Source of the DNA: an uncultured Gammaproteobacteria bacterium
GTDB lineage: Bacteria; Patescibacteriota; Patescibacteriia; Magasanikbacterales; JBBTQS01
Assembly: GCA_965230935.1 (NCBI GenBank)
Contig: OZ246400.1
Location: 694,359 to 758,358 of the forward strand
Length of the DNA stretch: 64,000 nucleotides
Direction of reading: 5' to 3'
Position numbers and translations under genes: made by a program. The notes beneath the pieces were generated by a model. That model was not told where the DNA came from and ran no database searches. It saw only the letters and a program-made list of their open reading frames with translations. Shown piece after piece: positions 3,383 through 63,014 of the stretch (its first letter is position 1; each line of letters opens with the position of its first letter).

Positions 3383-3489
3383 ATGATTTTAGAGTTTAAT
3401 TTAGCTAAATTTAGAATATTCTAAGTATACGTTGTTTTATCTTAAATTAAAAACTTTGCTTATTTTAAATAAAAAATAGCTAAAAAAGC

Positions 3490-3518
3490 TTGACAAAATC
3501 GCTTTTTTGTGCTATAGT
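3490..3518 (+). promoter_or_regulatory. consensus sigma70 promoter (TTGACA-17 nt-TATAGT) for cassette A
   Basis: TTGACA at 3490-3495, 17 nt spacer, TATAGT at 3513-3518. GC-rich sequence begins immediately downstream. Confidence 0.55.
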
Positions 3519-3580
3519 ACGTGGTCGTTGGGTTGATCTCAGCGGCAGAGCCTCCCTTTGATAGGGAAAGGAGAACGTTT

Positions 3581-4046
3581 CGTGAAGACTTTCGAGTTCA
3601 ATTTCAGCGAGTCCGTGGCCTTCCGTCGGTTCATGCAGGAGCTCACCTGGCGCCGGGATTCCCTGCCCCTGAGTGACCTGTTCGAGCGTACCGAAGGGAA
3701 CGGTAAGCGTCGTGAGTGGTTCAACCTCTCCAAGGTGGAGACGGGCGACATCATCACCTGCACCGTGAGGGAGTACTTCGTCGGCTTCGGGTTCAGCTAC
3801 CCCGATGGTGGCAGCGACTTCATCAACCTGACCGGCACGGACGTGATGGATCAGGACGACACCTGCCGGTACCGTGAGGTGCGGTTCTACGTCCAGGACA
3901 TGCCCCGCGGCGAGGACGAGCTCATGGCTACCGTCGTGGTGGCCAAACGAGAGCGCTCCTACGAGGACGGGGACACGACCCGCTACAACACCATCTGGGC
4001 CGTGGACCTCGTGTGCTGGGAGGGCGACTGGGCTCTGGACGGCTAA
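3581..4046 (+). CDS. hypothetical protein, GC-rich cassette A (155 aa from GTG; listed ORF starts at TTG 3558)
   Basis: About 60% GC ORF in a roughly 45% GC backbone. AGGAGA RBS 7 nt upstream of GTG 3581. High GC3 codon usage. No recognizable domain. Confidence 0.55.
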
Positions 4047-4103
4047 GCGCCGCTCCACGACTTCGCTCACGGCGCCGCTCAAGCATTCCATTTACCAAAC
4101 AAC

Positions 4104-6740: not shown

Positions 6741-8738
6741 TTAGATCAACAGCCCAACGATGAGAAGCGCAACAATGTTTAAGATTTTAATCATGGGGTT
6801 AATCGCTGGACCGGCAGTATCTTTATATGGATCACCAACCGTGTCACCAGTTACTGCTGCTGCATGAGCAACAGATCCCTTGCCACCGTGGTTTCCGTCT
6901 TCAATAAATTTCTTGGCATTGTCCCACGCACCACCACCTGAGGTCATAGAGATTGCTACAAAGATTCCGGTGATAATACTTCCAACCAATACTCCACCAA
7001 GGGCAACAGGTCCTAATAAGAATCCTACAACAAGTGGTGCAAGCACTGGGATAAGTGCGGGAATGATCATTTGTTTGATCGCACCTTTGGTTACAATGTC
7101 AACAGTTCGACCATAGTCTGGTTTTGCTTTTCCTTCCATAATTCCAGCGATAGTTTTGAACTGGTGACGAACCTCTTTCACCACATCTCCTGCAACTTTT
7201 CCAACTGCTTCCATGGCATAGGCGCCAAAGAGGTATGGCAAAAGTCCACCGATAAAGAGTCCTACGATTACGTATGGATCACCAAGTTCAAACACCAACT
7301 CTTTGCCGCGTAGCACAAATTCTTCGGTGTAGGTTGCAAAAAGTACAAGTGCTGCTAAACCAGCTGAAGCAATCGCATATCCTTTGGTAACCGCTTTGGT
7401 AGTATTTCCGACTGCATCAAGTGGATCGGTAATGTTGCGTACCTTTTCATCCATCTCCGCCATTTCCGCAATTCCACCAGCATTATCAGTGATCGGGCCA
7501 TAGGCATCAATTGCCACAATGATGCCAGCCATAGAAAGCATGCTCATTGCTGCAATCGCCACTCCGTAGAGTCCGGCAAGTGTAAACGCACCAAGCATTC
7601 CAGCGGCAATCACAATTACTGGTAGAGCCGTTGATTTCATAGAAATTGCCAAGCCAGTAATAACATTGGTTCCATGGCCAGTTTCACTTGCTTTGGCAAT
7701 ATTGCGCACAGGTTTGTACTTGGTTGAAGTGTAGTATTCAGTGATTACTACCATAAGACCGGTCACTGCCAATCCAATTACTGCAGACCAGAAGATATCC
7801 ATGGTTACCTCAGGGAAGTAGTATTGTGCTGCAGGATAGAACATGATGAGCGCCAACACGCCGGCAACACCAAGTCCTTTATATAGCGCGTTCATGATGT
7901 TCTTTTTGCGACCAAGTTTGAAGAAGAAGGTTCCAATGATTGACGCAACAATTGAGATTCCGCCAAGCATCAGTGGGAACAAGATCGCATTGTCTCCGGC
8001 ACTCTTAAATACAATTGAACCTAACAACATCGCAGCAACAGAAGTTACCGCATAGGTTTCGAACAAGTCTGCTGCCATTCCGGCACAGTCACCGACATTA
8101 TCTCCAACATTATCAGCGATCACCGCTGGGTTGCGAGGGTCGTCTTCTGGAATACCTTTTTCAACTTTTCCAACAAGGTCTGCTCCTACATCCGCAGCTT
8201 TAGTGTAAATTCCACCACCAAGACGCGCAAATACTGAGATCAGCGACCCACCAAAGCCCAGACCAACGAGCACTTGCAAATCTTTTGTGATCCAATACAT
8301 AACCGTCACACCAAGGAGTGCTAACCCAACGACAAGAAGTCCGGTAACCGTTCCTCCTTTGATAGCAACATTAAGCCCGGGTGCCAATCCTTTTTCAGCG
8401 GCTTGTGCGGTGCGGACGTTTGCCCGGACTGAAACCATCATCCCGATGATTCCCGCCAGTGCAGAGAGTACTGCCCCTACCAAAAATCCGATTGCCACGC
8501 CCCAGCCAAGTGGACTAAATCCAAGAATTAAGAAAATAATAAGACCAATCCAAGCGACGGTCTTATACTGGCGCGTCAAATACGCGCGAGCACCCTCTTG
8601 GATTGCACGAGCAATGGCCATCATTTTGTCATTTCCTGATGGCTGCTTCATGATCCAAGCAGAAAGGTAAATGCCATATACAATTGCAATTACTGCGGCA
8701 ATTGTGGCACTAAGTAAAAGTGTCGTTACAGTACTCAT
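6741..8738 (-). CDS. hppA: membrane-bound H+-translocating pyrophosphatase (V-type H+-PPase)
   Basis: 665 aa polytopic protein with GDNVGDCAG and [11 protein letters not shown] signatures. Confidence 0.9.
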
Positions 8739-8838
8739 ATAATATAGATAGCGTTAGATAGGTGTTGTAAAACTAGGGCTATAATAGGTGAGTGTCACGT
8801 AAAAGTCAATAATTGGGATGGAATTTTGCCTAAATTAC

Positions 8839-8876
8839 AAAGACCCTACTGCGTGTTGAAGCGCGAGAGGGTCTTT
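8839..8876 (-). terminator. hairpin terminator downstream of cassette gene B
   Basis: On the minus strand, stop codon, then CAACAACACACAACCACAA, then AAAGACCCT..AGGGTCTTT stem. Confidence 0.45.
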
Positions 8877-8893
8877 GTGGTTGTGTGTTGTTG

Positions 8894-10096
8894 TCAGGGC
8901 TCGTCGGTCTCCAGAGGTCCTGGGTAGAAGTTGATCCTCAGGGGGAACCACGTGCACTCGGCAGGGTCGCTGATAGGATCATCGGCCGTGGGGCAGATCT
9001 CTTCCAGCGTATTGCCGGATCGGAGCATCTCCGCGAGGTAGGCACGGTGCTCCTCGATACTTGGCGGTCCTTCGACCTTCACGACGATGTCTTGAGGAAG
9101 AGCGCCCTTGTGCTTGAGCTGTGAGACCACCTGCTCCAGTTGCTCAGGATCACCGGCTGCTGCCACGAGGGCTCGCGTGTCAGCATCTGAGAACTTGTCA
9201 GGATCCAGGGCGACGCACGCTTGCGGTTCCTGGGTCTCACCAGCTTCTTCAGTACCCTCTTGGGTGTCGCACCCGCTGAGGAACATGGATTGCATCTCCT
9301 CGTCAAGCTGGTGACGGCAGCCGGGGTTGAGTGCGGTGAAGAAGGTGAACGCCACGCTGAAGTGGTCTTTCAGGTACAGCTGGAGTTGGTACGACGTGTG
9401 CTTGAGAATATTGCACGCCTCATCACGCTCCCGAGCGGCTTGCGCATTGGAACCGGAGGCCGCATCCAGAGACTGCTCGATGAGGTCGTAGACCACCAGC
9501 CAGCCGCCTTCCATCTGGTTGGCGATGATTGCGCGAGTCAGGTCGCTCATCTGCGTCGGATCGCCCACTTCCTTTTGCTCGTCGATCGCCATGAGCATGC
9601 ATTGCTCAAGGCTCTCCAGTGGCGTCTCCTCAAAGGAACACGTGCACAGCGGGTGCGACGTGCCAAAGAGGGACAGGAGCATAACAGCAATGATCTCTTC
9701 TTTCGTCTCAGGCTTGGGCTCGACGGTCATGGCGCCGGAGACCACGCGCAGCAGTGCGGTGCTGCACAGCGCTTCCAGGTTGTCTTCCTGGTTACCTGCC
9801 GAGCGCATGATGTCCAGCAGCGCGTACCACGTGGCGTAGTCGTTTGCCAGTAGGAGCTGGGCGACCACGTGTGGCGTCTGCGGGTTCATCTTGTCCTCGA
9901 CCGGGGCGAGCAGCATCTTACGCACAGCTTGCATGCGCTCGAGCTTGTTCAGCTGCATGAGCTGCTCGTACGGGGTCGTGATGGTCGGCGCCTCGTCAGA
10001 CGAATCTCGTGGCTCCCAATCAGTGAGCCACAAGATTGTTCCTGCGAGGCCGATCAGGAAACCCAACGCCAAGGCGTTGAGTTGGAGTTTGGACAT
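8894..10096 (-). CDS. hypothetical membrane-anchored protein, GC-rich, paralog of the following ORF (cassette B)
   Basis: 400 aa, N-terminal TM. Shares motifs KLERMQxVR, DYATWYAL, SHPLC, GGW, FPGC and a C-terminal ICP..DPI..C with 10316..11494. About 60% GC. Own promoter TTGACA-17-TATGCT (10217-10245, minus strand) and GGAGGGG RBS. Confidence 0.6.
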   Translation of the reverse strand: MSKLQLNALALGFLIGLAGTILWLTDWEPRDSSDEAPTITTPYEQLMQLNKLERMQAVRKMLLAPVEDKMNPQTPHVVAQLLLANDYATWYALLDIMRSAGNQEDNLEALCSTALLRVVSGAMTVEPKPETKEEIIAVMLLSLFGTSHPLCTCSFEETPLESLEQCMLMAIDEQKEVGDPTQMSDLTRAIIANQMEGGWLVVYDLIEQSLDAASGSNAQAARERDEACNILKHTSYQLQLYLKDHFSVAFTFFTALNPGCRHQLDEEMQSMFLSGCDTQEGTEEAGETQEPQACVALDPDKFSDADTRALVAAAGDPEQLEQVVSQLKHKGALPQDIVVKVEGPPSIEEHRAYLAEMLRSGNTLEEICPTADDPISDPAECTWFPLRINFYPGPLETDEP

Positions 10097-10315
10097 ATGC
10101 CCCTCCAGAGGTAAAAGGTTGTGGTCTGTAGGTCAGCGCAATACACAATGCATCGCAGACCAATCAGTGTTGAGCAGTACTCAGCACGGTTGATGCACGA
10201 TTACAGACAACGATTCAGCATACACGATTTTTAGACGGTTGTCAAGATTGCGTAGTAATTAAAAAACGCCCGTAGCACGGAACGTTTTTCGTTGTTGGTT
10301 TGTTTGGAACGTGAC

Positions 10316-11494
10316 TTACTCCTTGCCCCTCACTGAGTAGGTGGTCATTTTTTGGGGCGGGCACTTCTCCGGCGTGCGGATCGGATCTTTCACCCCAGGG
10401 CAGATCTGCTCGATCGGTGCGCCTTGGCGTTTGAGCTGGATGAGCATACTGCGAAGTTCCTCAGGAGTAGTATCCTGCTCGGTCTTGATGAGCTGGCTTC
10501 GGTCCTTGGCACCAAGTTGGCGTGCCATTTCCTCGTCGCGCTGTGCATCGTTGTCGAGCTCCGCCAGCTTGTACAACATTGCCTCTTGCTCTTCGCGACA
10601 CGCTTGCTCTTGCGCTGCCTCACTCAGCTCACCCTCTTGAGCTTGCTCATCGGTCTCCTCAACCGGATCGCAAGTGAGGTCCTCGCTGAGCGTATCGGGA
10701 AGACCTTCTTTGCAGCCAGGAAAGAAGAGGGCGAACATGGCAAAACGCAAGCTGTACTCGTCAGCAGAGAGCGTGTTCAGTCTGCCAGCGACACGCCACA
10801 AAAACTCGCAGGTCTCTTTTTGCTGGGCATCTTCCCGCTTTCCGGAGGTGCCATTCTTCATGGCCGAGTAGACAGCTGACCAGCCGCCGACCATCTTGCT
10901 CGCCAGGATGTTGCGTGCGACCTCATCAATTACCGGGTCGAACTCGAGCGGGTTCTCTTTGTGCAATCGTTGCACCTCATCCTGGGTTTCTTTGCCGATT
11001 TGATGCGCCCAATCCGGGTAGTCCGGCAGCATGCACAGTGGGTGTGACCAGAGGTGAGTCACGATGCGCAAGTCATCCGGGACTCCTTGCGGATCGGTAC
11101 CTATGACCACGCGCATCAGTGCGATACACATGGGGTGGTCCAGGTCGATGCCGGTAGCTCCTGCCTGCTCCATGATTTCGTACAGGGCATACCAGGTGGC
11201 GTAGTCCTCGTTACGCAGCAGGTCGATAACCTCATGCGCAGCGCCGGGATCGTCCGGATCCCACTCCTTGGTGAGCGCCTCGCGCACGTGTTGCATGCGC
11301 TCGAGTTTGCTCATCATGGAAAGCGGCTTAGTTAGGTTCGAGCCGGCGTACACCACCAGCTGACTCTGGTAATAGGAGCGCACCGCGCTTCCCACACCGA
11401 GAGCAACCAGTAGTGCGATGATGACGATGGGCACTCTGCGCACCCACCGATGACGTTGCAAGAACGTCAAGTTTTTGGGTTTGCGAACGCTCAT
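10316..11494 (-). CDS. hypothetical membrane-anchored protein, GC-rich, paralog of previous (cassette C)
   Basis: 392 aa, N-terminal TM, same motif set as B. AGGAG RBS. Minus-strand 3' flank CCAAACAAACCAACAACG plus hairpin 10262-10289. Confidence 0.6.
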   Translation of the reverse strand: MSVRKPKNLTFLQRHRWVRRVPIVIIALLVALGVGSAVRSYYQSQLVVYAGSNLTKPLSMMSKLERMQHVREALTKEWDPDDPGAAHEVIDLLRNEDYATWYALYEIMEQAGATGIDLDHPMCIALMRVVIGTDPQGVPDDLRIVTHLWSHPLCMLPDYPDWAHQIGKETQDEVQRLHKENPLEFDPVIDEVARNILASKMVGGWSAVYSAMKNGTSGKREDAQQKETCEFLWRVAGRLNTLSADEYSLRFAMFALFFPGCKEGLPDTLSEDLTCDPVEETDEQAQEGELSEAAQEQACREEQEAMLYKLAELDNDAQRDEEMARQLGAKDRSQLIKTEQDTTPEELRSMLIQLKRQGAPIEQICPGVKDPIRTPEKCPPQKMTTYSVRGKE

Positions 11495-11652
11495 GTCACT
11501 CCTTCTCTCTCACGCGGTCGGGGTAATCGGGTGGTCGTAGCGGGGTATCAACAATAATATCCCAGACCAGATAGTATTTGGCGCGCCAAACAGTACCGAT
11601 CTGTAATATGACGTAACGTACGACCATACCCAGTTTAAACACACTTGTCAAG

Positions 11653-13068
11653 TTGACATCACTAGTCTTGAGTCTCTTGATCATTTATAGTATACCTACT
11701 ACGCAAACAGCGCAGCACATGAAACGATTTACGTATAAAGCAATTTTAGAGTTTTTAAAGCTTCTGGTTCAGATTAAGCGATTTTTTGTAGTGATTGGGC
11801 GATATTTAGGTCAATGGCTTTCTCGATTTTTTGGTAAAAGCGCGCGGATTTTACTCTTTGGAGGATATAAGCGCTACGTTGGGGTTCGTCGAAAAATGTC
11901 GAGTTATTTAGGAAACACAGAGGATAAAGTATATGCGATTTCGTCCCATACGGTGTTTAGTAGCATATTGATTGGTGTATTGGTACTCACCTTAATTATG
12001 CCGCACACACGGTTTTGGGTGCCGTCTGCCTATGGTGCTGGGAATAATAGTGTGTTGCTCCAGGTCTTGGCACCTGGTGAAGAAGAAGCATCGTTTGCCC
12101 AAGATGTCATTATTACAGAAACTGCTCAAGCGGCCCCTACCGCTTCAGCGCAAGCAGACCCATTTGCGTTTGCTGTAAAGACGCAACCAGAGGCAGTAGG
12201 GACTGATAATGATCAAGACATTGATCAATTAGTTGGTGTTTGGGGAGACGGTGCAAACATTGCCGCACCTATGATTTTGCCAGGAGCTGAGGTAACACCA
12301 TCACGCCGCGCGATCACTACATACGTGGTTCAGCAAGGAGATAGTGTTGGTACTATTGCTGAGAAGTTTGGTGTGAGTGTGAATACTTTACTGTGGGAAA
12401 ACAATTTAAATGCACGATCTTATATTCGTCCCGGTGATGTGTTGGCGATTTTGCCGGTAAGTGGTGTTTCACATGTGGTCAAGCGTGGCGAGACACTCAG
12501 TAAGATTGCCAAGAAGTATTCAATTGATGCTACCAGTGAGCTGGTCGAGTTTAATCGTTTGGCAAATGCCAACGATATTGTGATTGGAGAAAAGATTGTG
12601 ATTCCAGGCGGGAAGAAGATTAAGACCGTACCGCGTGTGACCAGTCCAGTATATGCACCAAAGTCATATAGTAATATTGCTGCGCCACCACCAAGTCGTT
12701 ATGCAGCAGGTGAAGGAATGGTGTGGCCAACCAGTGGTCATGTAGTGACGCAATATTATCATGCACGCCATCAGGCACTGGATATTGATGGGCATTATGA
12801 TTCTCCACTCTACGCATCAGATTCAGGAGTGGTGACGATTTCTGGTTGGCGTAAAGGATATGGACTTGGTATTGATATTGATCATGGTAATGGAATTAAA
12901 ACTCGGTATGGTCATGCGAGTAAGTTGTTTGTTTCAGTGGGTGATCGCGTTACCAAGGGTGAAGTGATTGCGATGATGGGAACCACTGGGTATTCAACTG
13001 GTACACATTTGCATTTTGAGATTCATGTGAATGGGGTGAAGGTAAACCCATTCCGTTACGTGCGGTAA
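11653..13068 (+). CDS. LysM-domain M23 family metallopeptidase
   Basis: Two LysM repeats (GDSVGTIAEKFGVS, GETLSKIAKKYSI). C-terminal M23 signature HxxxD...HLHFE (HQALDIDG, GTHLHFEIHVNG). True start may be internal (M at 11721). Confidence 0.85.
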   Translation: MTSLVLSLLIIYSIPTTQTAQHMKRFTYKAILEFLKLLVQIKRFFVVIGRYLGQWLSRFFGKSARILLFGGYKRYVGVRRKMSSYLGNTEDKVYAISSHTVFSSILIGVLVLTLIMPHTRFWVPSAYGAGNNSVLLQVLAPGEEEASFAQDVIITETAQAAPTASAQADPFAFAVKTQPEAVGTDNDQDIDQLVGVWGDGANIAAPMILPGAEVTPSRRAITTYVVQQGDSVGTIAEKFGVSVNTLLWENNLNARSYIRPGDVLAILPVSGVSHVVKRGETLSKIAKKYSIDATSELVEFNRLANANDIVIGEKIVIPGGKKIKTVPRVTSPVYAPKSYSNIAAPPPSRYAAGEGMVWPTSGHVVTQYYHARHQALDIDGHYDSPLYASDSGVVTISGWRKGYGLGIDIDHGNGIKTRYGHASKLFVSVGDRVTKGEVIAMMGTTGYSTGTHLHFEIHVNGVKVNPFRYVR

Positions 13069-31439: not shown

Positions 31440-32087
31440 TCAGTCGCTCTTGCTGGTGTAGTAGAGCTTACCTAGCAGGGCTTTTTGTTGTGCCTCGTCA
31501 AGTCCTCTGAAGAAGCGCATGGCTCCAGGGATCACATCACTCACGTGATGAGCGACCGTATTCTCCGGGAGCTCACCCACCGGCCACCAGCGAGCAGTCT
31601 TGCCTTTTTGGGGATGGCCAGCCAAGGTCACCAGGAATACGTGTGGATGTCCCCAGCCGCGGTCGTCGTCGATGAAGTGATCACTCGCAAGGGTGAAGTC
31701 CGAGATCTCGACCCCAAACTCACTCCGGCTCAGGCGGCTGACTACCGCCCGGTGATCCTCCCTGAATCGGTAGATCGACCCAGGGCAGTGCCACATGCCC
31801 CCGTAATGCGGGTCGTTGTCCGGTCGCAGGGCCATGAAGACCTCAATACGCGTCGCACGAGATCGCCCTCCAGCGTAGTAGCAACGGCGCAACGCCACTG
31901 CCTCGAACGCGCTGTACGGACGTACTCGCAAGAGCGCCTCGAACAACTCGTGCGAATGCTGTGCTGCCGGGTCAACTCGACCGAGCATCTCCATCAGCAA
32001 CGCTTCTTGATCAGCAGGTATGAGTTGCTGAACCAGATGCGCCACCCTGGATAGGCTTTCAACCAAAGCCAAATCCCTCCTTCTTGT
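31440..32087 (-). CDS. hypothetical protein, GC-rich (cassette D). Start uncertain (TTG/ATG near 32050-32093)
   Basis: About 60% GC ORF. Upstream minus-strand promoter TTGACA(32141-46)-17-TATGCT(32118-23) and AAGGAGGG RBS. 3' flank CAACACAACCACCAACACC plus palindrome CCACCACGTGGTGG. Weak Nudix-like PxxGGMWHCPGS segment, but no Nudix box. Confidence 0.5.
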   Translation of the reverse strand, partial: TRRRDLALVESLSRVAHLVQQLIPADQEALLMEMLGRVDPAAQHSHELFEALLRVRPYSAFEAVALRRCYYAGGRSRATRIEVFMALRPDNDPHYGGMWHCPGSIYRFREDHRAVVSRLSRSEFGVEISDFTLASDHFIDDDRGWGHPHVFLVTLAGHPQKGKTARWWPVGELPENTVAHHVSDVIPGAMRFFRGLDEAQQKALLGKLYYTSKSD

Positions 32088-32222
32088 ATTCAACCGGAAC
32101 TGCCGGCACAGGCAAGGAGCATACCATGGCGGTACGCTCCTGTCAATATAAAAGCAAAACCCGAGCCATAGCTGGCACGGGATGCGTTGTGTGTTTGTTT
32201 TGACTTGGAGATGGGCGCGTGG

Positions 32223-32954
32223 TTAAGCTCTTGCCTTAGTGATCGCCGGCATGACCTCGTCCTGCACGAACTGCTCTGGTGTCGGCACTTGGCTCCAGTC
32301 CGGATCCTCACCGATCGTCTCGGCCGTGAAGTTGGCTCGCGCGAGCGGCGTGTCGATCAGGCCAGGCTCCAGTAGTACCAGCTTGACCTTCCCACCATAA
32401 TACGCGATTGAGTGCGTGAGCAGTCCCTTGTGCCATTTACTGACTTGGCGCATGGAGAAGACGTATCCATGCTCGTTTTCCATGCGCGGGTCATCGTCAG
32501 CGAAGTTCGCCGCCTGGGAGCTGACGTTCACTATCACGCCACCACCACCTGTGTTGTACAACGCCAGCGAGAACATGTGACACATCATCACCTTGCTGAT
32601 GAAGTTCACCAGCTCGAGTCGAGCGATCACAGCCTCCTTGCCATCCCCATTGGGATTGTTGTCCCACATGAACATCCCGGCGGCGTTCACCAGAATGTCG
32701 AGACGTTTGGTTCGCGCATGCACTTGCGCGCCCAACCTCTGGATCGAGCACGGGTCAGTGACGTCTGTGATCATGATCGCGCCGTGCTGCTCTCCGCCTA
32801 CCGCCTCCAGCGTCTCTTGGAGTCGCGCCTCGTTGCGCGCCACCAGAAAGACAAAGTACCCGTCTTGGGCAAGCGCCACCGCAATGGCGCGACCGATGCC
32901 GCTTGAGGCGCCGGTGACCAGTGCGTATCGCATGGTTGGTGTTCCCTCACTCAT
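32223..32954 (-). CDS. short-chain dehydrogenase/reductase (SDR) family oxidoreductase, GC-rich (cassette E)
   Basis: TGASSGIGRAIA Rossmann motif, NAAG, downstream Tyr/Lys region. About 62% GC. 3' flank AAACAAACACACAACG plus hairpin plus U-run (32155-32215, minus strand). Confidence 0.8.
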   Translation of the reverse strand: MSEGTPTMRYALVTGASSGIGRAIAVALAQDGYFVFLVARNEARLQETLEAVGGEQHGAIMITDVTDPCSIQRLGAQVHARTKRLDILVNAAGMFMWDNNPNGDGKEAVIARLELVNFISKVMMCHMFSLALYNTGGGGVIVNVSSQAANFADDDPRMENEHGYVFSMRQVSKWHKGLLTHSIAYYGGKVKLVLLEPGLIDTPLARANFTAETIGEDPDWSQVPTPEQFVQDEVMPAITKARA

Positions 32955-34025: not shown

Positions 34026-34110
34026 ATATTGACAATTGAGAGAAATTGATATAGTGTCGCATCAGACAGGAGTCACTGAACCAATACAGGACGTTATCGA
34101 GGAGGGAATC

Positions 34111-34779
34111 ATGCCACAGGATCTCACGTGGCAGGAGTGGTTGGCAGCGTACCGAGCTAACCATGCAATGGAGGTACGTCGATGTACGTTGGGTGCTCTG
34201 GCACAGGGCATCCCGCAGGACAAATCCCACACGGTGTGGCGCATGCAGCCCAGTGAGGTGTTTGGTCGCGAGGATGGCGCGTTCTTTCATTTGACCGGAG
34301 CGCGCATCAGCTTGCGAGGAGGCGAGCGTGAGGTTGCTGCTTGGTCCCAGCCCATGCTGGTCGAGAGCGGTGAGGGGCGCGTGGTTTTGCTGCGTCGCGG
34401 GATAAGGTATTTGCTGCAGGCCAAGCTCGAGCCAGGCAACCCCGTGTCCGGCAATCGCGTACTGATTGCACCGACGATCCAAGCATCAGAGTCGAATCTC
34501 GCACAGAAGCACGGCGGTCGTCGCCCGCGTCACGCCGAACGACTCGACACTGCGGATGGTCCGCGTTGGTACAAGGCTCCTCAAGATGGTGGTCGGTTTG
34601 ACCAGAAGGTCAACCAGTATGCGGTTATCCCGGCAGGTTCTCGTCCGATTCAGATCGATCCAGATTCAGAGCGCTGGTTCGACGTCAACGAGCTGGCCGA
34701 AGTGATCGTCTCTGGTGAGGCCAACCAGCATCTGCGTGAGGCTTTCGGTTTTATTTGGGCCGCTGAGTACATGGAGTAA
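34111..34779 (+). CDS. hypothetical protein, GC-rich (cassette F). Possibly NDP-hexose 2,3-dehydratase-like single repeat.
   Basis: AGGAGG RBS 6 nt before ATG 34111. Promoter hexamers TTGACA(34029)/TATAGT(34050) with a 15 nt spacer. Segments LLQAKLEPGNP and APTIQASESNL recalled as resembling the hexose-dehydratase family (from memory, not verified). Followed by (CACAA)n 34779-34803. Confidence 0.55.
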   Translation: MPQDLTWQEWLAAYRANHAMEVRRCTLGALAQGIPQDKSHTVWRMQPSEVFGREDGAFFHLTGARISLRGGEREVAAWSQPMLVESGEGRVVLLRRGIRYLLQAKLEPGNPVSGNRVLIAPTIQASESNLAQKHGGRRPRHAERLDTADGPRWYKAPQDGGRFDQKVNQYAVIPAGSRPIQIDPDSERWFDVNELAEVIVSGEANQHLREAFGFIWAAEYME

Positions 34780-34832
34780 CACAACACAACACAACAACAC
34801 GACCCGAGCATAACTGCCGGGCCTTGTTTATA

Positions 34833-34861
34833 TTGACAATTTTTGCGCGAGAGCATATACT
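34833..34861 (+). promoter_or_regulatory. consensus-like promoter TTGACA-17-TATACT for cassette G
   Basis: Shares the 14-mer TTATATTGACAATT with the promoter of cassette F (34024-34037 vs 34828-34841). Confidence 0.5.
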
Positions 34862-34902
34862 GCCGCTTCCAGCTATGATGGCTGTGAGAAGGGAGGAGAT
34901 AA

Positions 34903-35739
34903 ATGGCTGACGAGATAAACTCCGAACAGGAACGGATAAAACAGCAGGCGCTTACGCGCGTACGAAGTACCTCGATTGCGCAGTTGCGCAATACTCCACC
35001 ACTAGTCGTAGCGGTTGTGCTTTTGGAGACTCGGCTCGGTGGGCTGGAGGGGTGGGATATCCCCGAGGAAGTCCGAGAAGACCTGACACAAAAGCGTCGA
35101 GCGCTCGCACAGGCAATGCAGCGCCCGGGCCACCACAGTTATGTGGGGATGTATCTGCCATATCGTGATCCAGAAGGACGCGAGCGATGGGTGCATTTTG
35201 GGACGCAGTACATGCGTGATGTCAAGAAGACACGCTCCGGACTCGCTGCACTGATCAATCATGGCCGTCCGTGTACCGACGCATTGCGAGACTTGTTGGC
35301 TGAGTTTGTAGACTCCTGTCCCAACGAGGAAGGAGACATTTACTTGGTTGACACCCGTCTTCGTGCCATATCCTCAGATCACCTACCGTATCATTGGGAA
35401 TTCGGTTTGCACATCGCGTTACTGGTAGCGCGCGAACAGGCCGGAAGAATTATGTCGCGGTGGGTAAGTCTGAGTAAGCGCTGCCCCCTGATTCCGTTGG
35501 CAGATGCTGCACCGGACATCTGGCTCGTATTTCGTGAACGAGAAGAGGAGGGATTTGTCCAGGAGGCGTTGGCGGGTGAGAATCTCCAGGAGATCGCGGT
35601 TGAGGATGGCGTAGATGAGATACTCGCGCTTCGCCCTCAATGCCGGCACGTCGTGGTCATGGTGGACACTCCGGCGCAGGCCGCGGCAGTAGTCATTGAG
35701 ATCGGGAGACGGGTGCTCAACGCGCGTCTTACTCCATGA
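34903..35739 (+). CDS. hypothetical protein, GC-rich (cassette G)
   Basis: 278 aa. GGGAGGAG RBS. About 62% GC. Followed by CACACAACACAACAACC (35745-35763) and hairpin plus T6 (35766-35798). No recognizable domain. Confidence 0.55.
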   Translation: MADEINSEQERIKQQALTRVRSTSIAQLRNTPPLVVAVVLLETRLGGLEGWDIPEEVREDLTQKRRALAQAMQRPGHHSYVGMYLPYRDPEGRERWVHFGTQYMRDVKKTRSGLAALINHGRPCTDALRDLLAEFVDSCPNEEGDIYLVDTRLRAISSDHLPYHWEFGLHIALLVAREQAGRIMSRWVSLSKRCPLIPLADAAPDIWLVFREREEEGFVQEALAGENLQEIAVEDGVDEILALRPQCRHVVVMVDTPAQAAAVVIEIGRRVLNARLTP

Positions 35740-41194: not shown

Positions 41195-42586
41195 TTGGAG
41201 GAAATAATGGGCCGTAAGTTCTTGATGAACGTCGCGTGCACACTTCTGATGGGTGCATGTCAGTCTGTGGTGCCGGATGCTTTTTCTGGTGGTGTGGTTG
41301 TTTCGGACGCTGATGTGGGGTTGGTTCCGGCGGGTTCAAGTGGCGTTATATCAACGGGTGTTGCAGATGGTGTAGGTGTGGTGTTGGATGAGTCCCAGGA
41401 TACGCAGCGTGGCGACGAGGCGGAGATGGACTCTCAACAGGATGGCGAGCCGACGATTGAGCACCAAGACGAAGTGATCGCTGTTGAGGAGCGCCTTGCT
41501 GGAACCTGTTGGTACATCGATCCAGCCAAGCACTGGCTGGACGAGACCAACGCAGTGCTTGCCATGAGCAACGACGATGTGGTGGTGATCGGGAACACCC
41601 ACGTGGCAGTGAGTGAGTACGCTGTACAAAAAGATGCCGTGATCACGCTACTCAATCGCTCAGGAGATCTGCTTTGGCAAGAGCAGCTCGGGTGGACAGA
41701 CCATGACGACCTTACCGCTGCTGTGGTGAGGGATGATACCCGATTTTTAGCCGTTGGGAACACACGTTCTTCTGGATCAGGTGGATCGGACGCGTGGATC
41801 ATAGAGATGGATGTGAGTGGTGAGCTGATTTGGGAGGAAGATTATGGCGGCGTGAACAATGATGTTGCTCGTTCGATCGCTCGTGATCTTGAGGGCGGGT
41901 ACATTGTTGTTGGCAATACTGGAAATGTGGTTGATGGTGTTGCCACGTCACCCTGGATATTTCGCATTAGCGAAATGGGACTTATGCAGTGGGGGAAGAT
42001 TTTAGGGCTCAAGCAGGGCGGCGTGCTTTCTGATGTGATTCGCATTAGCGAGAACGAATTTGTTGCGGTTGGCTCGACCGTGATGGATAGTGATGGAGAA
42101 ATCAAAACTATTCTGGTGCGGTTTGCACAAAATGGTGGTGTGATTTGGCAGGTGCTGCATAGCGCGATCCCGTATCAGGTTGGTCAATCAGTGGTGCAGA
42201 CCGCAAGTGGTGACTTTGTCATCACCGGCTATGCCGACATCGGTGAGCAATACCTGCATGACGGTTTTGTCCTACGCGTTACCGCTGAGGGTGGGTTTGT
42301 TTGGCAAAAGACATTGGGTGGTGATTACTATGACACCTTTACTGCAGCGGCCTGGACACTTGGTGATCATGTCTTGTTGGCAGGACTGACTCGTTCGTAT
42401 GGGTACGGCGGGGCTGATATGTGGTTGGTCAAGATGAAAGCTGGCGGTCAAGTGCTCTGGGAACAGGCCCATGGCACTCCTGATTTTGAAAAGGCTAACG
42501 CGGTGTTACCGCTTGAAGATGGGATGATTCTAGCGGGTCGCGGTGGGGTGTACCGACTCAATACGCATGGGCAGCTGTGTCCATAA
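41195..42586 (+). CDS. beta-propeller repeat lipoprotein (SBBP-like repeats), GC-enriched (cassette H)
   Basis: Lipobox LLMGAC. Seven approximately 50-aa repeats of the pattern VGNT..G..DAWI..D.SG...W. Promoter TTGGCA-17-TATAGT, GGAGG RBS. 3' flank TAACAACATAACAACGCACC plus hairpin. Confidence 0.6.
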   Translation: MEEIMGRKFLMNVACTLLMGACQSVVPDAFSGGVVVSDADVGLVPAGSSGVISTGVADGVGVVLDESQDTQRGDEAEMDSQQDGEPTIEHQDEVIAVEERLAGTCWYIDPAKHWLDETNAVLAMSNDDVVVIGNTHVAVSEYAVQKDAVITLLNRSGDLLWQEQLGWTDHDDLTAAVVRDDTRFLAVGNTRSSGSGGSDAWIIEMDVSGELIWEEDYGGVNNDVARSIARDLEGGYIVVGNTGNVVDGVATSPWIFRISEMGLMQWGKILGLKQGGVLSDVIRISENEFVAVGSTVMDSDGEIKTILVRFAQNGGVIWQVLHSAIPYQVGQSVVQTASGDFVITGYADIGEQYLHDGFVLRVTAEGGFVWQKTLGGDYYDTFTAAAWTLGDHVLLAGLTRSYGYGGADMWLVKMKAGGQVLWEQAHGTPDFEKANAVLPLEDGMILAGRGGVYRLNTHGQLCP

Positions 42587-48916: not shown

Positions 48917-48987
48917 GCGGGTATGGTGTAATGGTAACACGAAAGGTTTCCAACCTTTTGATGCGGGTTCGATTCCCGCTACCCGCT
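48917..48987 (+). tRNA. tRNA-Gly (anticodon UCC)
   Basis: Cloverleaf: acceptor GCGGGTA/TACCCGC, D-arm GTGT-AATGGTAA-CAC, anticodon stem AAAGG/CCTTT with loop TTTCCAA, T-arm GCGGG-TTCGATT-CCCGC. CCA not encoded. Confidence 0.85.
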
Positions 48988-49200
48988 CATCAAAACAAAA
49001 CGTCTTAGTTGTTGCTAAAAAGATTCAGGCTGGAGATTTGGCAGGTATTGGTGTGACACGGCTTAAGGGGAGACGAGATGTATTGCGTGCAAGGGTAGGA
49101 AAAGTTAGGATCCTTTTCGTAGAGTTTACGGGTGAGTATCGAATTATTTCTATCGAGTGGCGATCAGAGAATACATATAAACAGACGAAGTCATAACCAT

Positions 49201-53606: not shown

Positions 53607-55340
53607 TTACCCTCCCTCGGTTTGGAGTTGTACCAGACGGTGGTACAGTCCATTTTGTCGCATGAGTTGATCGTGCGTTCCCACCTCGGCCACGCGACCA
53701 TCTTCCACGATGATGATCTTGTCCGCGTGCATGATGGTGGAGAGTCGGTGCGCAATGAGGATCAGCGTCTTTTTCCCTTCCAGAGTCGACAGCGCATCTT
53801 GAATGGCACGCTCAGACTCTGCATCCAGGTTGCTGGTTGCCTCATCAAACACCACCACGGTCGGATCGTTGAGCAGTGCTCGCGCAATACCCACTCGCTG
53901 CCGTTGTCCACCGGAGAGTTTCATACCACGCTCACCTACGATGGTGTTGTACCCGTCCGGGAGTGTAGAAGCAAACTCATGCACCCGTGCTAGCTTAGCC
54001 ACTCGTTTGACCGCTTGCTCGGTTGCTTTCGGGTTCCCATACGCAATGTTCTCCCAGATCGTTCCACTCATGATCTCGACCTCTTGCGGAACATATCCGG
54101 TCATGCGACGGTAGGCTTGCAGGCTGAGACCTCGCAAGTCATTCCCGTCGATGCGGATGGTTCCTGAGTTAGGGTCATAGTAGCGGAACAGTAGCTTCAC
54201 GATGGTCGACTTCCCACCCCCTGATGGTCCGGCAAATGCCACCGTCTCCCCAGGGTTGATGGAGAAGTTCACGTTGGAGAGTGCGTTTTGTTCTGGGGTG
54301 TACCCAAACGTCACGTCATCGAATGTGATTGCTCCGGTCCAGCGTTTTGGCGCGATCGCACCAGGTGCACTTACCACACGTGGTTTGGTGTGAATGATGT
54401 TGAACAGTCGTTGCATCGGCTCTGTTGCCTCAACCATGCGGTCGAGAATTTGGTTCAGGTTGAACATTGAAATGTACACCTTCTCCGAGAGCGTCAGAAA
54501 CAACACGACCGAACCAATGGTAAGTTCTCCAGTGATGGCTTTGTATCCAGCAAGTGAGATGATCCCAAGTCGTCCGAAGTTGATGATCATCATGCGCCAG
54601 AAGTTCATGCGCGTGCCGAACATCCAACGTAATCGTCCCAGGTCATAGATCCGTCCGCGCATTGCACCGTAGCGCTTCTTCTCGCGCTGCTCTTGGGCAA
54701 ACGCTTGCACTGTTTTGATGTTGATCACCGACTCGCACAGCCGACCGGCTGAGTTCTCGTACAGATCTTCTTGCTCTTTGCGCCACGGGTATGTGGTGTG
54801 ATGCAAATGCCAGGTCATGATCGCAAAGATCGGGATGACGATAGCAAAGAGAATGGCAAGCTGCCAATCTAGTGCGATCATCAAGATCGATGTCCAGGTG
54901 ATTTGCATGAGTAGGGGAATGAGCATCCACAACAGCTGTCCACCGAACTCGACCAGCTTCATGGTTCCGCGTTCAAGACGTGCGATTTGTTCACCGGTTT
55001 GTTCTTGCTCATGGAACCCGAGCGAGAGTGCCAAAAGTTTTTTCTGTGCGAGCTTCGGCAGCTCGTTTTCCATCCAGTACAATGCATCAAGGATGTAGCG
55101 ATCCACGATTACGTCGACCGCCGCAATCAGTGTTTGCGCCACAAAGATTCCCAGTGCCAACCAGAGGATGGTACTGAGTAGATCATCGGTGCGTAGTGTC
55201 AATGTGTCGAGCACTTCCTTAAAGAGGTATGTCGGCACAATCATCAGTGCTTCAAGCACCACGATGAACGCGATTGCCTTTTGGAAGACCTTCCGATGCG
55301 GTCTGATCAACCGTAGGAACTGTGATATGAATTCTTGCAT
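53607..55340 (-). CDS. ABC transporter permease/ATP-binding protein (MsbA-like exporter), GC-enriched (cassette I)
   Basis: Six N-terminal TMs. Walker A GPSGGGKST, signature LSGGQRQR, Walker B VVVFDEATS. Start at ATG (MQEF) with AAGGAG RBS. About 55% GC. Confidence 0.85.
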   Translation of the reverse strand: MQEFISQFLRLIRPHRKVFQKAIAFIVVLEALMIVPTYLFKEVLDTLTLRTDDLLSTILWLALGIFVAQTLIAAVDVIVDRYILDALYWMENELPKLAQKKLLALSLGFHEQEQTGEQIARLERGTMKLVEFGGQLLWMLIPLLMQITWTSILMIALDWQLAILFAIVIPIFAIMTWHLHHTTYPWRKEQEDLYENSAGRLCESVINIKTVQAFAQEQREKKRYGAMRGRIYDLGRLRWMFGTRMNFWRMMIINFGRLGIISLAGYKAITGELTIGSVVLFLTLSEKVYISMFNLNQILDRMVEATEPMQRLFNIIHTKPRVVSAPGAIAPKRWTGAITFDDVTFGYTPEQNALSNVNFSINPGETVAFAGPSGGGKSTIVKLLFRYYDPNSGTIRIDGNDLRGLSLQAYRRMTGYVPQEVEIMSGTIWENIAYGNPKATEQAVKRVAKLARVHEFASTLPDGYNTIVGERGMKLSGGQRQRVGIARALLNDPTVVVFDEATSNLDAESERAIQDALSTLEGKKTLILIAHRLSTIMHADKIIIVEDGRVAEVGTHDQLMRQNGLYHRLVQLQTEGG

Positions 55341-55840
55341 GTGTTTGTTGGTTACTCCTTCTTTCTCCTTCAAGTCCCTTCTTTCCCGCCTCGTGTTCGT
55401 GTACACGAAAATACTCTGCTTCTTAGAAGCAGAGTATTTATTCGAAAATTGCTAATTTAAGCTAAATTCATGATTTCGAAGAAACACACTGCTCCCAAGA
55501 GTTGGTATCGACATATGCAATACCGCGTGCCTGTGGGGTAACAGTTGGCATGCCAAAAGCAAGCCCTACCATGAGCTGGAAGGATGCAAACTTCTGGTTT
55601 TGCCAGTGTTTCTCCATAGAGATTAAAAATAATTGTCGTTATTGTAGACGTTTCCAGAGTGGAAACGTTACACTATAGCGCGCGCAATATGAGATGTCAA
55701 GAATCATATTTTAGGGTCACTTATTGACAAACGTACATCTTTATGCTACACTATCCGCGTATAAATGCAGTCTCATTACTGGGAATAGTGTCGATATTTC
55801 TCAAGAGTCAAGCATATACATGTAAGAAAATATCTACGTT

Positions 55841-56743: not shown

Positions 56744-57407
56744 TCACTTCATGAAGAAGCGTTGTGCGTTCTCGCCGACCACTCGTCGAATCTGCCACTC
56801 CTCCAGTCCGTGCGCGAGCAGGGAGCGGATCAAGGTCTTGAAGCAGTCTGCGACCGTGTGGCAGCCGGGTAGACGCCACTCGTCCAGAATGCCGCCGTAG
56901 TCGGTACCGATCCCTACCTGGAGCCACTCGCTGGCTTCTCCGAGCTCCACCAGATGCTCGATGAAGGGGCCATCCAGTCGCTCGTAGAATGGCTTTGCAG
57001 GAGAGAGGCACACGATGCCGCCGAGCTGGATGATCTCACGTGCCAGATGCATACTCAGGCACCGATCGTAGTTGCCATTTCGCAGTAGCGGGTTGACCAC
57101 TTCACTGTGCTGTACACCACCGTGGGTGTAACACAGTGGCGGCGCGCCTCCCCAGTGCCAGTATCCAGCATCTTTTAGGGTGTAACTCAGTGCGGATGAC
57201 CTCCACCTCGGCTTTGTGGGCGGGCGTGGTCTTGGGATAGGTTCCATCCCGTTCGCAGAACAGGACGCGCAAGGCGCCACCGAGCTGGTCCATGTTGGCG
57301 AGCTGTTCGGCAGACCCCCATCCGCCGCTCTGCTCACCATACTGATCCAGATGTGCGTCAAAGCACATAAACGGACGGTCATACCCGTCAATGGTGATTC
57401 CAGGCAC
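56744..57407 (-). pseudogene. amidohydrolase-2 (PF04909-like metal-dependent hydrolase), frameshifted and shortened, GC-rich (cassette J)
   Basis: GTG start with AAAGGAGG RBS. N-terminal metal-binding FDAHLD in one frame. H.GG (LCYTHGG) and GIGTDYGG (metal-binding Asp) plus C-terminal ENAQRFF in the +1 frame. Frames switch near 57190. 3' flank TAACACAACAGCACAACAAAACAACC plus hairpin 56690-56735. Confidence 0.5.
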
Positions 57408-62458: not shown

Positions 62459-62719
62459 TCATGGCTGTTGCTCCTTGACGGTACTCCAGGCCACGGTGTT
62501 GAAAAGGATACTGGGCGGGGCATCGGTCGCCGGTGCCAGCGGCGTGTCGGGTCGCGGATCAGTGGTACTCTTGGCTTCGCGTCGTGGGATCGGGTCGGGG
62601 TGATCGAGCGCATCAGCGATGCAGGCCTCGACGGTGGTGAGATCCAGACAGCGAGAGTCAAGGGTATCAGCGATCATGGGCCAGTACGCGAGCGCGTAAC
62701 AGGCTGGCACGACCAACAT
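62459..62719 (-). CDS. small membrane protein with Pro-rich C-terminus, GC-rich (cassette K, second gene). Start uncertain.
   Basis: Hydrophobic segment FFWVSMLVVPACYALAYWPMIA. 65% GC. Directly downstream of the zinc-ribbon gene. Confidence 0.35.
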   Translation of the reverse strand: MLVVPACYALAYWPMIADTLDSRCLDLTTVEACIADALDHPDPIPRREAKSTTDPRPDTPLAPATDAPPSILFNTVAWSTVKEQQP

Positions 62720-62783
62720 GCTTACCCAGAAAAACCAGTCTTGAAAAAAGCGTAGCAGGTCTTTGAGAACCTCCGTGACGGCC

Positions 62784-63014
62784 CTTACGCCGCCTGATTG
62801 GCCGCTCGGCGTTCGGCATAGAACGCCTGGCGAGCCTGCCATTGGTCGAAACGGCGGCGAACGCGCCGGCACCCTGCGCAATGCTCTCGACCGTTGCGGT
62901 CGAAGAACATGTTGTTGCAGCGCGTCGAAGCGCAAATCCGCTTGGCCATTCCACGCATCTGGATACGGACGAGCTTGCCGTCCGGTCCCCGTTTGAGGTC
63001 GAGCTTAATGCCCA
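62784..63014 (-). CDS. small zinc-ribbon protein (CxxxC...CxxC), GC-rich (cassette K, first gene)
   Basis: 76 aa (MGIKLDLKRGPDGKLVRIQMRGMAKRICASTRCNNMFFDRNGREHCAGCRRVRRRF...). AAGGAG RBS 4 nt before ATG 63014. Arg-rich. Confidence 0.5.

Follow-up and report, generated by a model that had tools for sequence, protein, structure and literature searches.

What are the two GC-rich genes, here called B and C, that separate a LysM/M23 peptidase gene (M23) from an H+-pyrophosphatase gene (PPase) in a small-genome Patescibacteria (CPR) bacterium, how did they come to lie there, and what might their products do? The window analysed here (the whole stretch of DNA, 64 kb) holds them in a compact islet on the minus strand. 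Our best explanation, in which we place about even confidence, is that the islet consists of two real, independently transcribed genes that descend from an old duplication, were acquired as an insertion and encode exported or anchored surface proteins. The features to which we refer are as follows.

8837..11656, minus strand: GC-rich islet of ~2.8 kb, between the PPase promoter and the M23 gene
11623..11651, minus strand: promoter-like site of C, TTGACA-17-TATGGT, which aligns with the B promoter
11522..11578, minus strand: conserved segment of the C 5' leader, containing TGGTCTGGGAT..ATTGT, from alignment with the B leader
10316..11494, minus strand: gene C, 392 aa, with an AAGGAG Shine-Dalgarno sequence 4 nt upstream of the ATG
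10259..10290, minus strand: intrinsic-terminator-like hairpin and T-run after C (stem 10281..10269, tail CGTTTTTTAA)
10217..10245, minus strand: promoter-like site of B, TTGACA-17-TATGCT
10110..10171, minus strand: conserved segment of the B 5' leader, containing TGGTCTGCGAT.CATTGT, from alignment with the C leader
8894..10096, minus strand: gene B, 400 aa, with a GGAGG Shine-Dalgarno sequence 5 nt upstream of the ATG
8837..8878, minus strand: terminator-like hairpin after B, with 11-nt perfect arms and a 20-nt loop

B and C are genuine genes and diverged tandem paralogs

B and C had originally been described as adjacent, diverged paralogs on one strand, and BLASTP of one against the other bears this out, with 30% identity across 347 aa (E 2e-34). 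Pairwise alignment shows homology along the whole of both proteins, which have one common architecture, and marks them as true, diverged tandem paralogs. A third copy was not found within the 64-kb window by tblastn.

The two genes differ at codon positions 1/2/3 by 0.52/0.44/0.58, with the minimum at position 2, and their GC1/2/3 values are 0.64/0.40/0.75 for B and 0.64/0.39/0.70 for C. As changes are fewest at position 2 and the GC1/2/3 pattern is of the coding type, we conclude that both are genuine coding genes. That they are spurious, chance open frames in GC-rich non-coding DNA is practically excluded, although long antisense ORFs are also present (9221-9853 and 10352-10879, plus strand): the codon-position analysis refutes this reading, the proteins are conserved despite synonymous sites that are near saturation, and Shine-Dalgarno sequences, promoters and terminators stand in the right places. 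Different codons are used at 51 of the 113 residues that are identical in B and C, and at the four-fold sites of such residues the two genes agree in 46% of cases, where composition predicts 32%. Given that four-fold sites are nearly saturated, the duplication is old.

Each gene has its own promoter and a related leader

Separate promoters had been claimed for the two genes, and both promoter-like sites are present, that of B just downstream of the C terminator hairpin. The C terminator, read from the sequence, has an extended AAAAACG/CGTTTTT stem, and the hairpin after B lies directly upstream of the PPase promoter (8809..8781). A local alignment of the two leaders alone scored 37, compared with 20.7 +/- 3.9 for shuffled sequences, a score reached in 2 of 2000 shuffles; for the whole upstream region, the observed score was reached in 2 of 1000. 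Because the upstream regions align better than chance and the B and C units are spaced 1362-1406 nt apart, the duplication took in promoter and leader as well as coding sequence. This was an old tandem duplication of a ~1.4-kb unit, and B and C may be co-regulated through their nearly identical promoters and the leader element conserved in both. A hairpin is possible in the conserved leader segment of both genes; the leader folds are not significantly stable (z -1.7 and -0.6). Rfam gave no RNA family in 8600-11800, its sole match being a chance one (E 0.49), and the leader box was not found at other sites in the 64-kb window. Neither a duplication of promoter and leader nor a foreign insertion into a conserved junction, as considered below, had formed part of the original prediction.

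The family is unusually isolated

No relative of B or C was detectable in 15 billion public proteins. An exhaustive HMMER profile search of 1.84 billion representatives recovered B and C themselves only, and two word-indexed searches of 5.8 billion clusters gave self matches only. Homologs were absent from 50,697 phage records and 72,556 plasmids by tblastn and were not found in IMG/VR or JGI contigs by degenerate-pattern scans. As had been stated, no family can be assigned: NCBIfam, PHROGs, PADLOC and the PDB sequence profile returned none, and Pfam searches with the full-length proteins and with separate domains, at E up to 10, returned noise only. A match of C alone to DUF7691 in Pfam (E 0.012) was rejected. 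A conserved system, with homologous pairs in other genomes, found no support, as not one homolog, let alone a pair, emerged from the proteins, phages, plasmids, IMG/VR and JGI genomes or metagenomes searched. The feature is of an ordinary kind, and it is the family that is unusually isolated. ORFans are usually short and AT-rich, whereas B and C are long (~400 aa) and GC-rich.

The islet is an insertion at a conserved junction

GC content is 0.57-0.61 in the islet and 0.41-0.46 outside it; the two genes have a GC of 0.58-0.60, their neighbours one of 0.42-0.46, and the GC3 of B and C (0.70-0.75) compares with 0.36-0.43 in core genes. Their codon-usage distance is 0.31-0.38 versus 0.07-0.14, and their dinucleotide delta* 122-173 versus 48-70. 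In composition, codon usage and oligonucleotide signature the islet is therefore atypical, as is expected of a genomic island. We compared synteny in five relatives (L004, L005, L007, L016 and L103), a set to which the closest relative (the L083 lineage) does not belong. In all five, M23 and PPase are direct divergent neighbours, ~80-175 bp apart, and the islet is absent from the syntenic position. Because the two genes are directly adjacent in these relatives, B and C together constitute a 2.8-kb insertion. Among the matches listed, no B or C homolog occurred in 160 related loci.

The islet has B and C as its only ORFs and contains no integrase or transposase, and no flanking direct repeats, tandem repeats or repeats common to other islets were found around it. 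No tRNA target was found near it, the only tRNA being at 48917-48988, and no search produced a donor or closer homologs outside the clade. The most likely origin would be the acquisition of an already-duplicated pair from an unsampled, GC-richer donor, with insertion at the otherwise conserved divergent junction of the LysM/M23 peptidase and H+-pyrophosphatase genes.

The strongest competing explanation, which we regard as possible though clearly not favoured, is that B and C are native and were never transferred, being fast-evolving, lineage-specific genes of the clade. Their high GC3 would then possibly stem from a process that acts on accessory genes within this genome, GC-biased gene conversion or repair for example, and the missing donor might, with similar reserve, mean that the genes diverge fast and that the lineage is thinly sampled. 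Such a process is suggested by an SDR gene in another GC-rich islet, whose closest homolog is 57% identical: its GC3 is 0.74, and that of the homolog at the same syntenic slot in the closer relative L083 is only 0.42. Since an islet gene can have a low-GC3 homolog in the same slot, GC-richness is no proof of recent transfer here. The dinucleotide signature of B and C recurs in several further GC-rich islets of one or two genes, and the lack of mobility genes and repeats at the islet is also consistent with a native origin. The best sampled relatives among the matches listed are only ~70% identical in PPase and 84% in RpoB; a second metagenome scan gave relatives at <=71% identity, again among the matches listed.

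Variation between samples points the same way. Two samples show only three differences in 12 kb, all of them in C (A>G, C>G and T>C); every one is toward G/C in the variant, and for two of them B serves as outgroup. A contig break lies inside B, at position 9484 of the window. Diversification of C by a diversity-generating retroelement was considered and rejected, as no repeat of the variable stretch was found, a reverse transcriptase was not found near the islet, and the variant sites are of the three kinds just given.

Against a native origin stand the tight M23-PPase junction, which retains no remnant in the five relatives, and the absence of any homolog even from the source assemblies of the closer relative, which the protein collections searched include. 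Moreover, the promoters and leaders of B and C are AT-rich (GC 0.46) and have not taken part in the rise of GC3; we know of no mechanism that restricts such a rise to single genes while sparing their promoters and leaders. We therefore retain acquisition as the preferred reading. GC-rich islets of one or two genes are numerous in the genome as a whole.

PMC12455944 describes horizontal transfer and genomic islands as common in Patescibacteria and adds that novel genes are generally enriched in such islands (Hsiao et al. 2005, cited therein). As portrayed there, the small ORFan islands of Patescibacteria resemble the B/C islet in their atypical composition, their absence from syntenic relatives, their genes without known homologs and their position between conserved housekeeping genes. 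The B/C islet differs in being only 2.8 kb long and in lacking an integrase, tRNA, repeats and an identifiable donor, and also in that at least one similar GC-rich islet of the same genome holds an ortholog rather than an acquisition.

B and C share a predicted membrane-anchored architecture

Both proteins follow one plan, in which an N-terminal hydrophobic anchor leads into an all-helical domain of ~220 aa, after which come a disordered acidic linker and, last, a small C-terminal module. The parts, all on the minus strand, map as follows.

11381-11437, minus strand: C anchor, residues 20-38
10709-11332, minus strand: C helical domain, residues ~55-262
10547-10708, minus strand: C acidic linker, residues ~263-316
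10331-10546, minus strand: C C-terminal Cys module, residues ~317-388
10025-10084, minus strand: B anchor, residues 5-24
9302-9976, minus strand: B helical domain, residues ~41-265
9197-9301, minus strand: B acidic linker, residues ~266-300
8912-9196, minus strand: B C-terminal Cys module, residues ~301-395

The N-terminal anchor, acidic central region and Cys-containing C-terminal module originally proposed for each protein were all recovered. Kyte-Doolittle hydropathy (19-residue windows, cut-off >1.6) finds a single N-terminal hydrophobic segment in each, the windows of B starting at residues 4-8 and those of C at residues 16-24. Six K/R residues precede this segment within residues 1-20 of C, and in B it is followed by the acidic stretch DWEPRDSSDE. 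The ectodomains have a pI of 4.3-4.65 and the linkers a pLDDT < 50 in AlphaFold. A lone hydrophobic segment near the N terminus, preceded by positive charges, is the pattern of type II (N-in/C-out) or Sec-exported proteins. On hydropathy and charge, the N terminus most likely lies inside and the remainder outside, the segment acting as a signal anchor or a cleaved signal peptide. A lipoprotein reading was rejected, since there is no lipobox (L-[AS]-[GA]-C) and the first 110 residues of both proteins are free of Cys.

Pairwise alignment shows the motifs KLERMQxVR, DYATWYAL, SHPLC, GGW..VY, PGC and ICPxxxDPIxxPxxC to be invariant. The motif set first reported therefore stands except for FFPGC, which is exact in C only and reads LNPGC in B. 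Six cysteines (C151, C228, C260, C294, C368 and C381) are invariant between B and C, and they may stabilise parts of the proteins as up to three disulfides, which we assume here. H76 and H148 are invariant as well, with HxxC spacing within SHPLC. It is conceivable, if doubtful, that the His and Cys residues conserved between them (H76, SHPLC, ExC, PGC, ICP...C) are instead metal or redox ligands. On this reading B and C would be metal-binding or thiol-redox proteins tethered to the membrane, and not structural surface proteins stabilised by disulfides. The invariance of both histidines and all six cysteines fits such a role. Against it, Pfam, NCBIfam and PDB gave no match to a metal-binding, thioredoxin-like or redox family, a CxxC motif is absent from both proteins, and the AlphaFold models are too poor for judging whether these residues cluster.

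Those models are of low confidence (pLDDT 54-55). Within that limit they share one secondary-structure plan, with an all-helical N-terminal domain of ~ten predicted helices. Fold searches with them returned nothing informative, all Foldseek matches having a probability <=0.2 and TM <=0.2. The top matches were helical-repeat proteins (ARM/HEAT/TPR/14-3-3-like), which are helical like the N-terminal domain of B and C; these matches, made with low-confidence models, are insignificant, and Pfam finds no repeat family by sequence. The C-terminal module is predicted to form strand, helix, short helix, loop and strand, similar to the beta-alpha-alpha-beta order of LysM, but bacterial LysM lacks the Cys-Cys loop of this module. 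We rejected a LysM identity, as no Pfam LysM match appeared even at E up to 10 and hhalign against the neighbouring LysM/M23 protein gave a probability of 0.1.

A possible role at the cell surface

Our best reading is that the islet is accessory and would encode two acidic surface proteins, either exported or anchored. Each would expose its acidic helical domain at the cell surface, followed by the flexible acidic linker and the small C-terminal module, and the pair may act in a strain-specific surface or envelope interaction, for instance by making contact with a host or partner cell. The envelope-associated role in the original prediction is to this extent plausible, as judged from the predicted topology.

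A small, lineage-specific and compositionally foreign insertion with its own promoters could also be the cargo of a decayed prophage or mobile element, for instance a superinfection-exclusion or surface-modification pair. We consider this improbable, given that B and C have no match in the phage and plasmid records, IMG/VR, PHROGs, PADLOC or BFVD, and that an integrase, att-like repeats and a tRNA were not found. Very improbable is the earlier idea of an antagonistic pair (toxin/immunity, receptor/anti-receptor or similar), in whose favour only adjacency and separate promoters speak. B and C share full-length homology and an identical architecture, and to our knowledge the partners of known toxin/immunity pairs are not homologous to each other. 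Pfam, PHROGs and PADLOC found no toxin, immunity or defence domain, and no pairing is conserved elsewhere, as the HMMER search of representatives found no homologs. Membership of toxin/immunity or polymorphic toxin systems, which calls for non-homologous partners and one toxin domain, was rejected.

Work by Meheust et al. in 2019 reportedly describes lineage-specific families of membrane or secreted hypothetical proteins common to many CPR genomes. B and C resemble such proteins in having an N-terminal anchor or signal and no Pfam domain, and in belonging to a small-genome, probably partner-dependent organism; those families are spread over many genomes, whereas B and C were found in one only. 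It is a speculative and rather unlikely extension that B and C are the sole sampled members of a new family, possibly with a new fold, of disulfide-bonded partner-contact surface proteins, and that their GC-richness, like that of the SDR ortholog, arises from an undescribed GC-biased process acting on accessory genes and not on the whole genome.

For genomes of this kind, composition-based calls of transfer need a synteny check, because the gene in at least one GC-rich islet here is an ortholog passed on by vertical descent. The interface between CPR bacteria and their partners is an area with almost no known molecules; if they are exported surface proteins, B and C would be a candidate strain-specific interface between this bacterium and its partner.

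B and C are diverged tandem paralogs

Two neighbouring minus-strand genes, B and C, lie together in a 2.8-kb GC-rich islet, with long open frames running antisense within each:

8894-10096, minus strand: gene B, 400-aa ORF
10316-11494, minus strand: gene C, 392-aa ORF
9221-9853, plus strand: antisense ORF within B
10352-10879, plus strand: antisense ORF within C

The original prediction of a diverged tandem pair was borne out by pairwise BLASTP alignment, in which B and C share 30% identity across 347 residues (E 2e-34). The motifs it had listed as common to both proteins fall in invariant alignment columns, except 'FFPGC', which is LNPGC in B. Searching all six frames of the window by tblastn, with B and C as queries, found no third copy. 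The genes are GC-rich (0.60 in B and 0.58 in C, against a window background of ~0.45), and their GC at codon positions 1/2/3 (0.64/0.40/0.75 in B, 0.64/0.39/0.70 in C) is the signature of coding sequence in a GC-rich regime. Across 366 aligned codons, differences between the two are lowest at position 2 (0.44), followed by position 1 (0.52), and highest at position 3 (0.58); 51 of the 113 residues identical between B and C are specified by different codons. A Shine-Dalgarno sequence stands ahead of each ATG (GGAGG in B, AAGGAG in C). B and C are real genes, and the antisense ORFs are by-products of GC content.

The start of C differs between annotations. The NCBI model (P0001) begins at an internal Met, giving 332 aa and losing the anchor; the 392-aa ENA model (P0002) fits the AAGGAG Shine-Dalgarno and a hydrophobic N terminus like that of B. 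A 62-aa ORF also called as a gene by ENA (11496-11684, minus strand) overlaps the promoter and leader of C as well as the beginning of the flanking LysM/M23 peptidase gene (M23), and is probably spurious.

Predicted architecture of the two proteins

Hydropathy, pI and alignment agree with the architecture first proposed, namely an N-terminal anchor, an acidic central region and a Cys-containing C-terminal module. Each protein has one N-terminal hydrophobic segment (residues ~5-24 in B, ~20-38 in C); six Lys/Arg precede it in C, and in B an acidic stretch comes after it. The positive-inside rule predicts that the N terminus of both lies inside and the bulk of the protein outside. Neither protein has a lipobox, the first Cys not occurring before residue 111, and the remainder of both is acidic (pI 4.3-4.65). 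AlphaFold2 was run twice independently, with B placed first in one run and C in the other. Both models are poor (pLDDT 54.9 and 53.7) but follow a single plan: some ten helices, then an acidic linker that is disordered (pLDDT below 50), and last a small C-terminal module (pLDDT 70-85) made up of a strand, a helix, a short helix, a Cys-loop and a strand. Six cysteines are invariant (C151, C228, C260, C294, C368 and C381 in B numbering); if the proteins are exported, these could pair into as many as three disulfides, but they may instead serve as metal ligands. From their sequences, B and C are most likely acidic membrane-anchored or secreted proteins on the cell surface.

B and C have no detectable relatives

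As the first reading had it, no family could be assigned: Pfam, NCBIfam, PHROGs, PADLOC and the PDB sequence profile gave no credible match, nor did the single domains, scanned with a cut-off as loose as E 10. The query genes themselves were all that came back from two word-indexed searches of 5.8 billion protein clusters, and an exhaustive HMMER profile search recovered B and C only among 1.84 billion sequences representing ~15 billion proteins. Phage and plasmid records gave no tblastn match, and IMG/VR and the JGI metagenome contigs contained no match to degenerate patterns. Foldseek, run with both models against the PDB and with the B model against BFVD, found generic helical-repeat proteins only (probability ≤0.33). 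The C-terminal module looks beta-alpha-alpha-beta, as does LysM, but this likeness had no sequence support (hhalign probability 0.1 against the neighbouring LysM/M23 protein).

The proposal of an immunity or receptor/anti-receptor pair was not supported. B and C are full-length homologs of each other with no toxin or defence domain, and the pair is not conserved elsewhere because no homolog at all was found.

The pair is inserted between housekeeping genes

B and C are present on a 931-kb contig, and also in two metagenome assemblies at ENA that belong to one project. Their neighbours are housekeeping genes, in the order trigger factor, NUDIX, H+-pyrophosphatase (PPase), B, C, LysM/M23 peptidase, ComM, S6-SSB-S18, EF-P, RecA and FtsK, and the best matches of the PPase are Patescibacteria (CPR) proteins at ~70%. 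In five related contigs (L004, L005, L007, L016 and L103) M23 adjoins PPase divergently across a gap of ~80-175 bp, with trigger factor seen on the far side in two of them (L004 and L016); therefore, the 2.8 kb carrying B and C was inserted here into the divergent promoter region. No B/C homolog occurs at any of the 160 related loci listed. The islet bears no integrase, tRNA, flanking repeats or repeats common with other islets.

Three of the related contigs (L004, L005 and L007) belong to GTDB records titled 'uncultured Gammaproteobacteria'. They have the M23|PPase synteny, ~70% PPase identity and GC of 0.39-0.43 in common with this CPR-like genome, and their taxonomic labels look doubtful.

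Expression signals and a conserved leader

Scans, a repeat search and alignment of B with C gave the following features:

11651..11623, minus strand: C promoter-like site, TTGACA-17-TATGGT (consensus scan)
11522-11578, minus strand: conserved leader segment of C (B/C alignment)
10281..10269, minus strand: hairpin and T-run 3' of C (scan)
10245..10217, minus strand: B promoter-like site, TTGACA-17-TATGCT (consensus scan)
10110-10171, minus strand: conserved leader segment of B (B/C alignment)
8837-8878, minus strand: perfect hairpin with 11-nt arms 3' of B (repeat search)
8809..8781, minus strand: H+-PPase promoter (scan)

The separate promoters expected for the two genes were recovered, with the hairpin and T-run following C. 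Matching segments of B and C are spaced 1362-1406 nt apart, and the promoters lie within this register. Between the -35 hexamer and the ATG, the observed alignment score was reached by 2 of 1000 dinucleotide shuffles; the leaders alone scored 37 locally, a value reached by 2 of 2000 shuffles (20.7 +/- 3.9). The leader segments have the core TGGTCTG[C/G]GAT..ATTGT, where a hairpin can form in either copy and the stem carries base changes on its two sides; leader stability showed no significant excess over shuffles, Rfam held no matching family, and the window contains no further copy of the box. Four-fold degenerate sites in identical residues are 46% identical compared with 32% expected (n = 59), which is near saturation, and the duplication is therefore old. 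That similarity is kept in non-coding leader DNA suggests constraint. The best-supported description is that B and C are independently transcribed, and they are probably co-regulated.

Composition and origin of the islet

GC3 is 0.70-0.75 in B and C compared with 0.36-0.43 in core genes, codon-usage distance is 0.31-0.38 compared with 0.07-0.14, and dinucleotide delta* is 122-173 compared with 48-70 in core genes that are about as long. In composition the insert is foreign. Since GC3 is high in both copies despite saturated synonymous sites, the simplest history would be that the pair duplicated inside a GC-rich donor and both copies then arrived together. Among Patescibacteria, islands and horizontal transfer are both frequent (PMC12455944).

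The window holds further GC-rich islets of one or two genes:

3480-4091
31440-32954
34036-35739
41195-42586
53607-55406
56744-57391
62459-62935

These are set among housekeeping genes, with GC of 0.53-0.62 against ~0.45. In some, Pfam assigns a domain (SDR, NDP-hexose 2,3-dehydratase or ABC transporter); others are ORFans. Their delta* to B is 77-98 in four of the seven measured, a B/C-like signature, and 120-183 in the remaining ones.

One islet bears on a serious rival, that B and C are native to this genome and fast-evolving. Its SDR gene (32223-32954, minus strand; GC 0.59, GC3 0.74) has its nearest homolog, at 57% identity, in L083 (9148-9858), a contig of a closer relative (RpoB 84%, RpoC 77% identical); the next best matches reach 35-40%. 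The slot, RuvC|SDR|TrxR, is the same in L083, where GC3 is 0.42, near the L083 background. A gene in this genome can therefore be GC-rich and yet vertically inherited, which weakens the transfer argument for B and C. The SDR ortholog is strongly GC3-enriched in this genome only.

In L083 RuvC and SDR are separated by only 58 bp; here a GC-rich 217-aa ORFan (31440-32093, minus strand) sits between them. The genes found between TrxR and transketolase (34036-35739, plus strand, in this window) are unrelated in the two genomes, and this slot looks like a variable hot spot. Two sequences look like partial domains and may be fragments of genes lying in GC-rich islets: a lone NDP-hexose 2,3-dehydratase domain of 247 aa (34036-34779, plus strand), and 56744-57391 (minus strand), which matches an M19 dipeptidase profile over the final third of the profile only (positions 213-317 of 319, below the Pfam cut-off).

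Variation between the two source samples is confined to C. Compared with the second-sample contig L082, which terminates within B at 9484, the assemblies differ at three sites in 12,011 bp, all inside 28 nt:

10734, minus strand: C codon 254, D>G
10747, minus strand: C codon 250, R>G
10761, minus strand: C codon 245, F>S

All three are non-synonymous and toward G/C in the variant, and B as outgroup sides with the window at two of them. With n = 3 this is only a hint, and may be an assembly artefact.

Together, B and C are best described as a paralogous pair in an accessory islet of atypical composition. Small islands that carry ORFans are already familiar from CPR genomes; what is unusual is a 400-aa family that is fully isolated yet has two anciently diverged members, together with its GC-rich composition.
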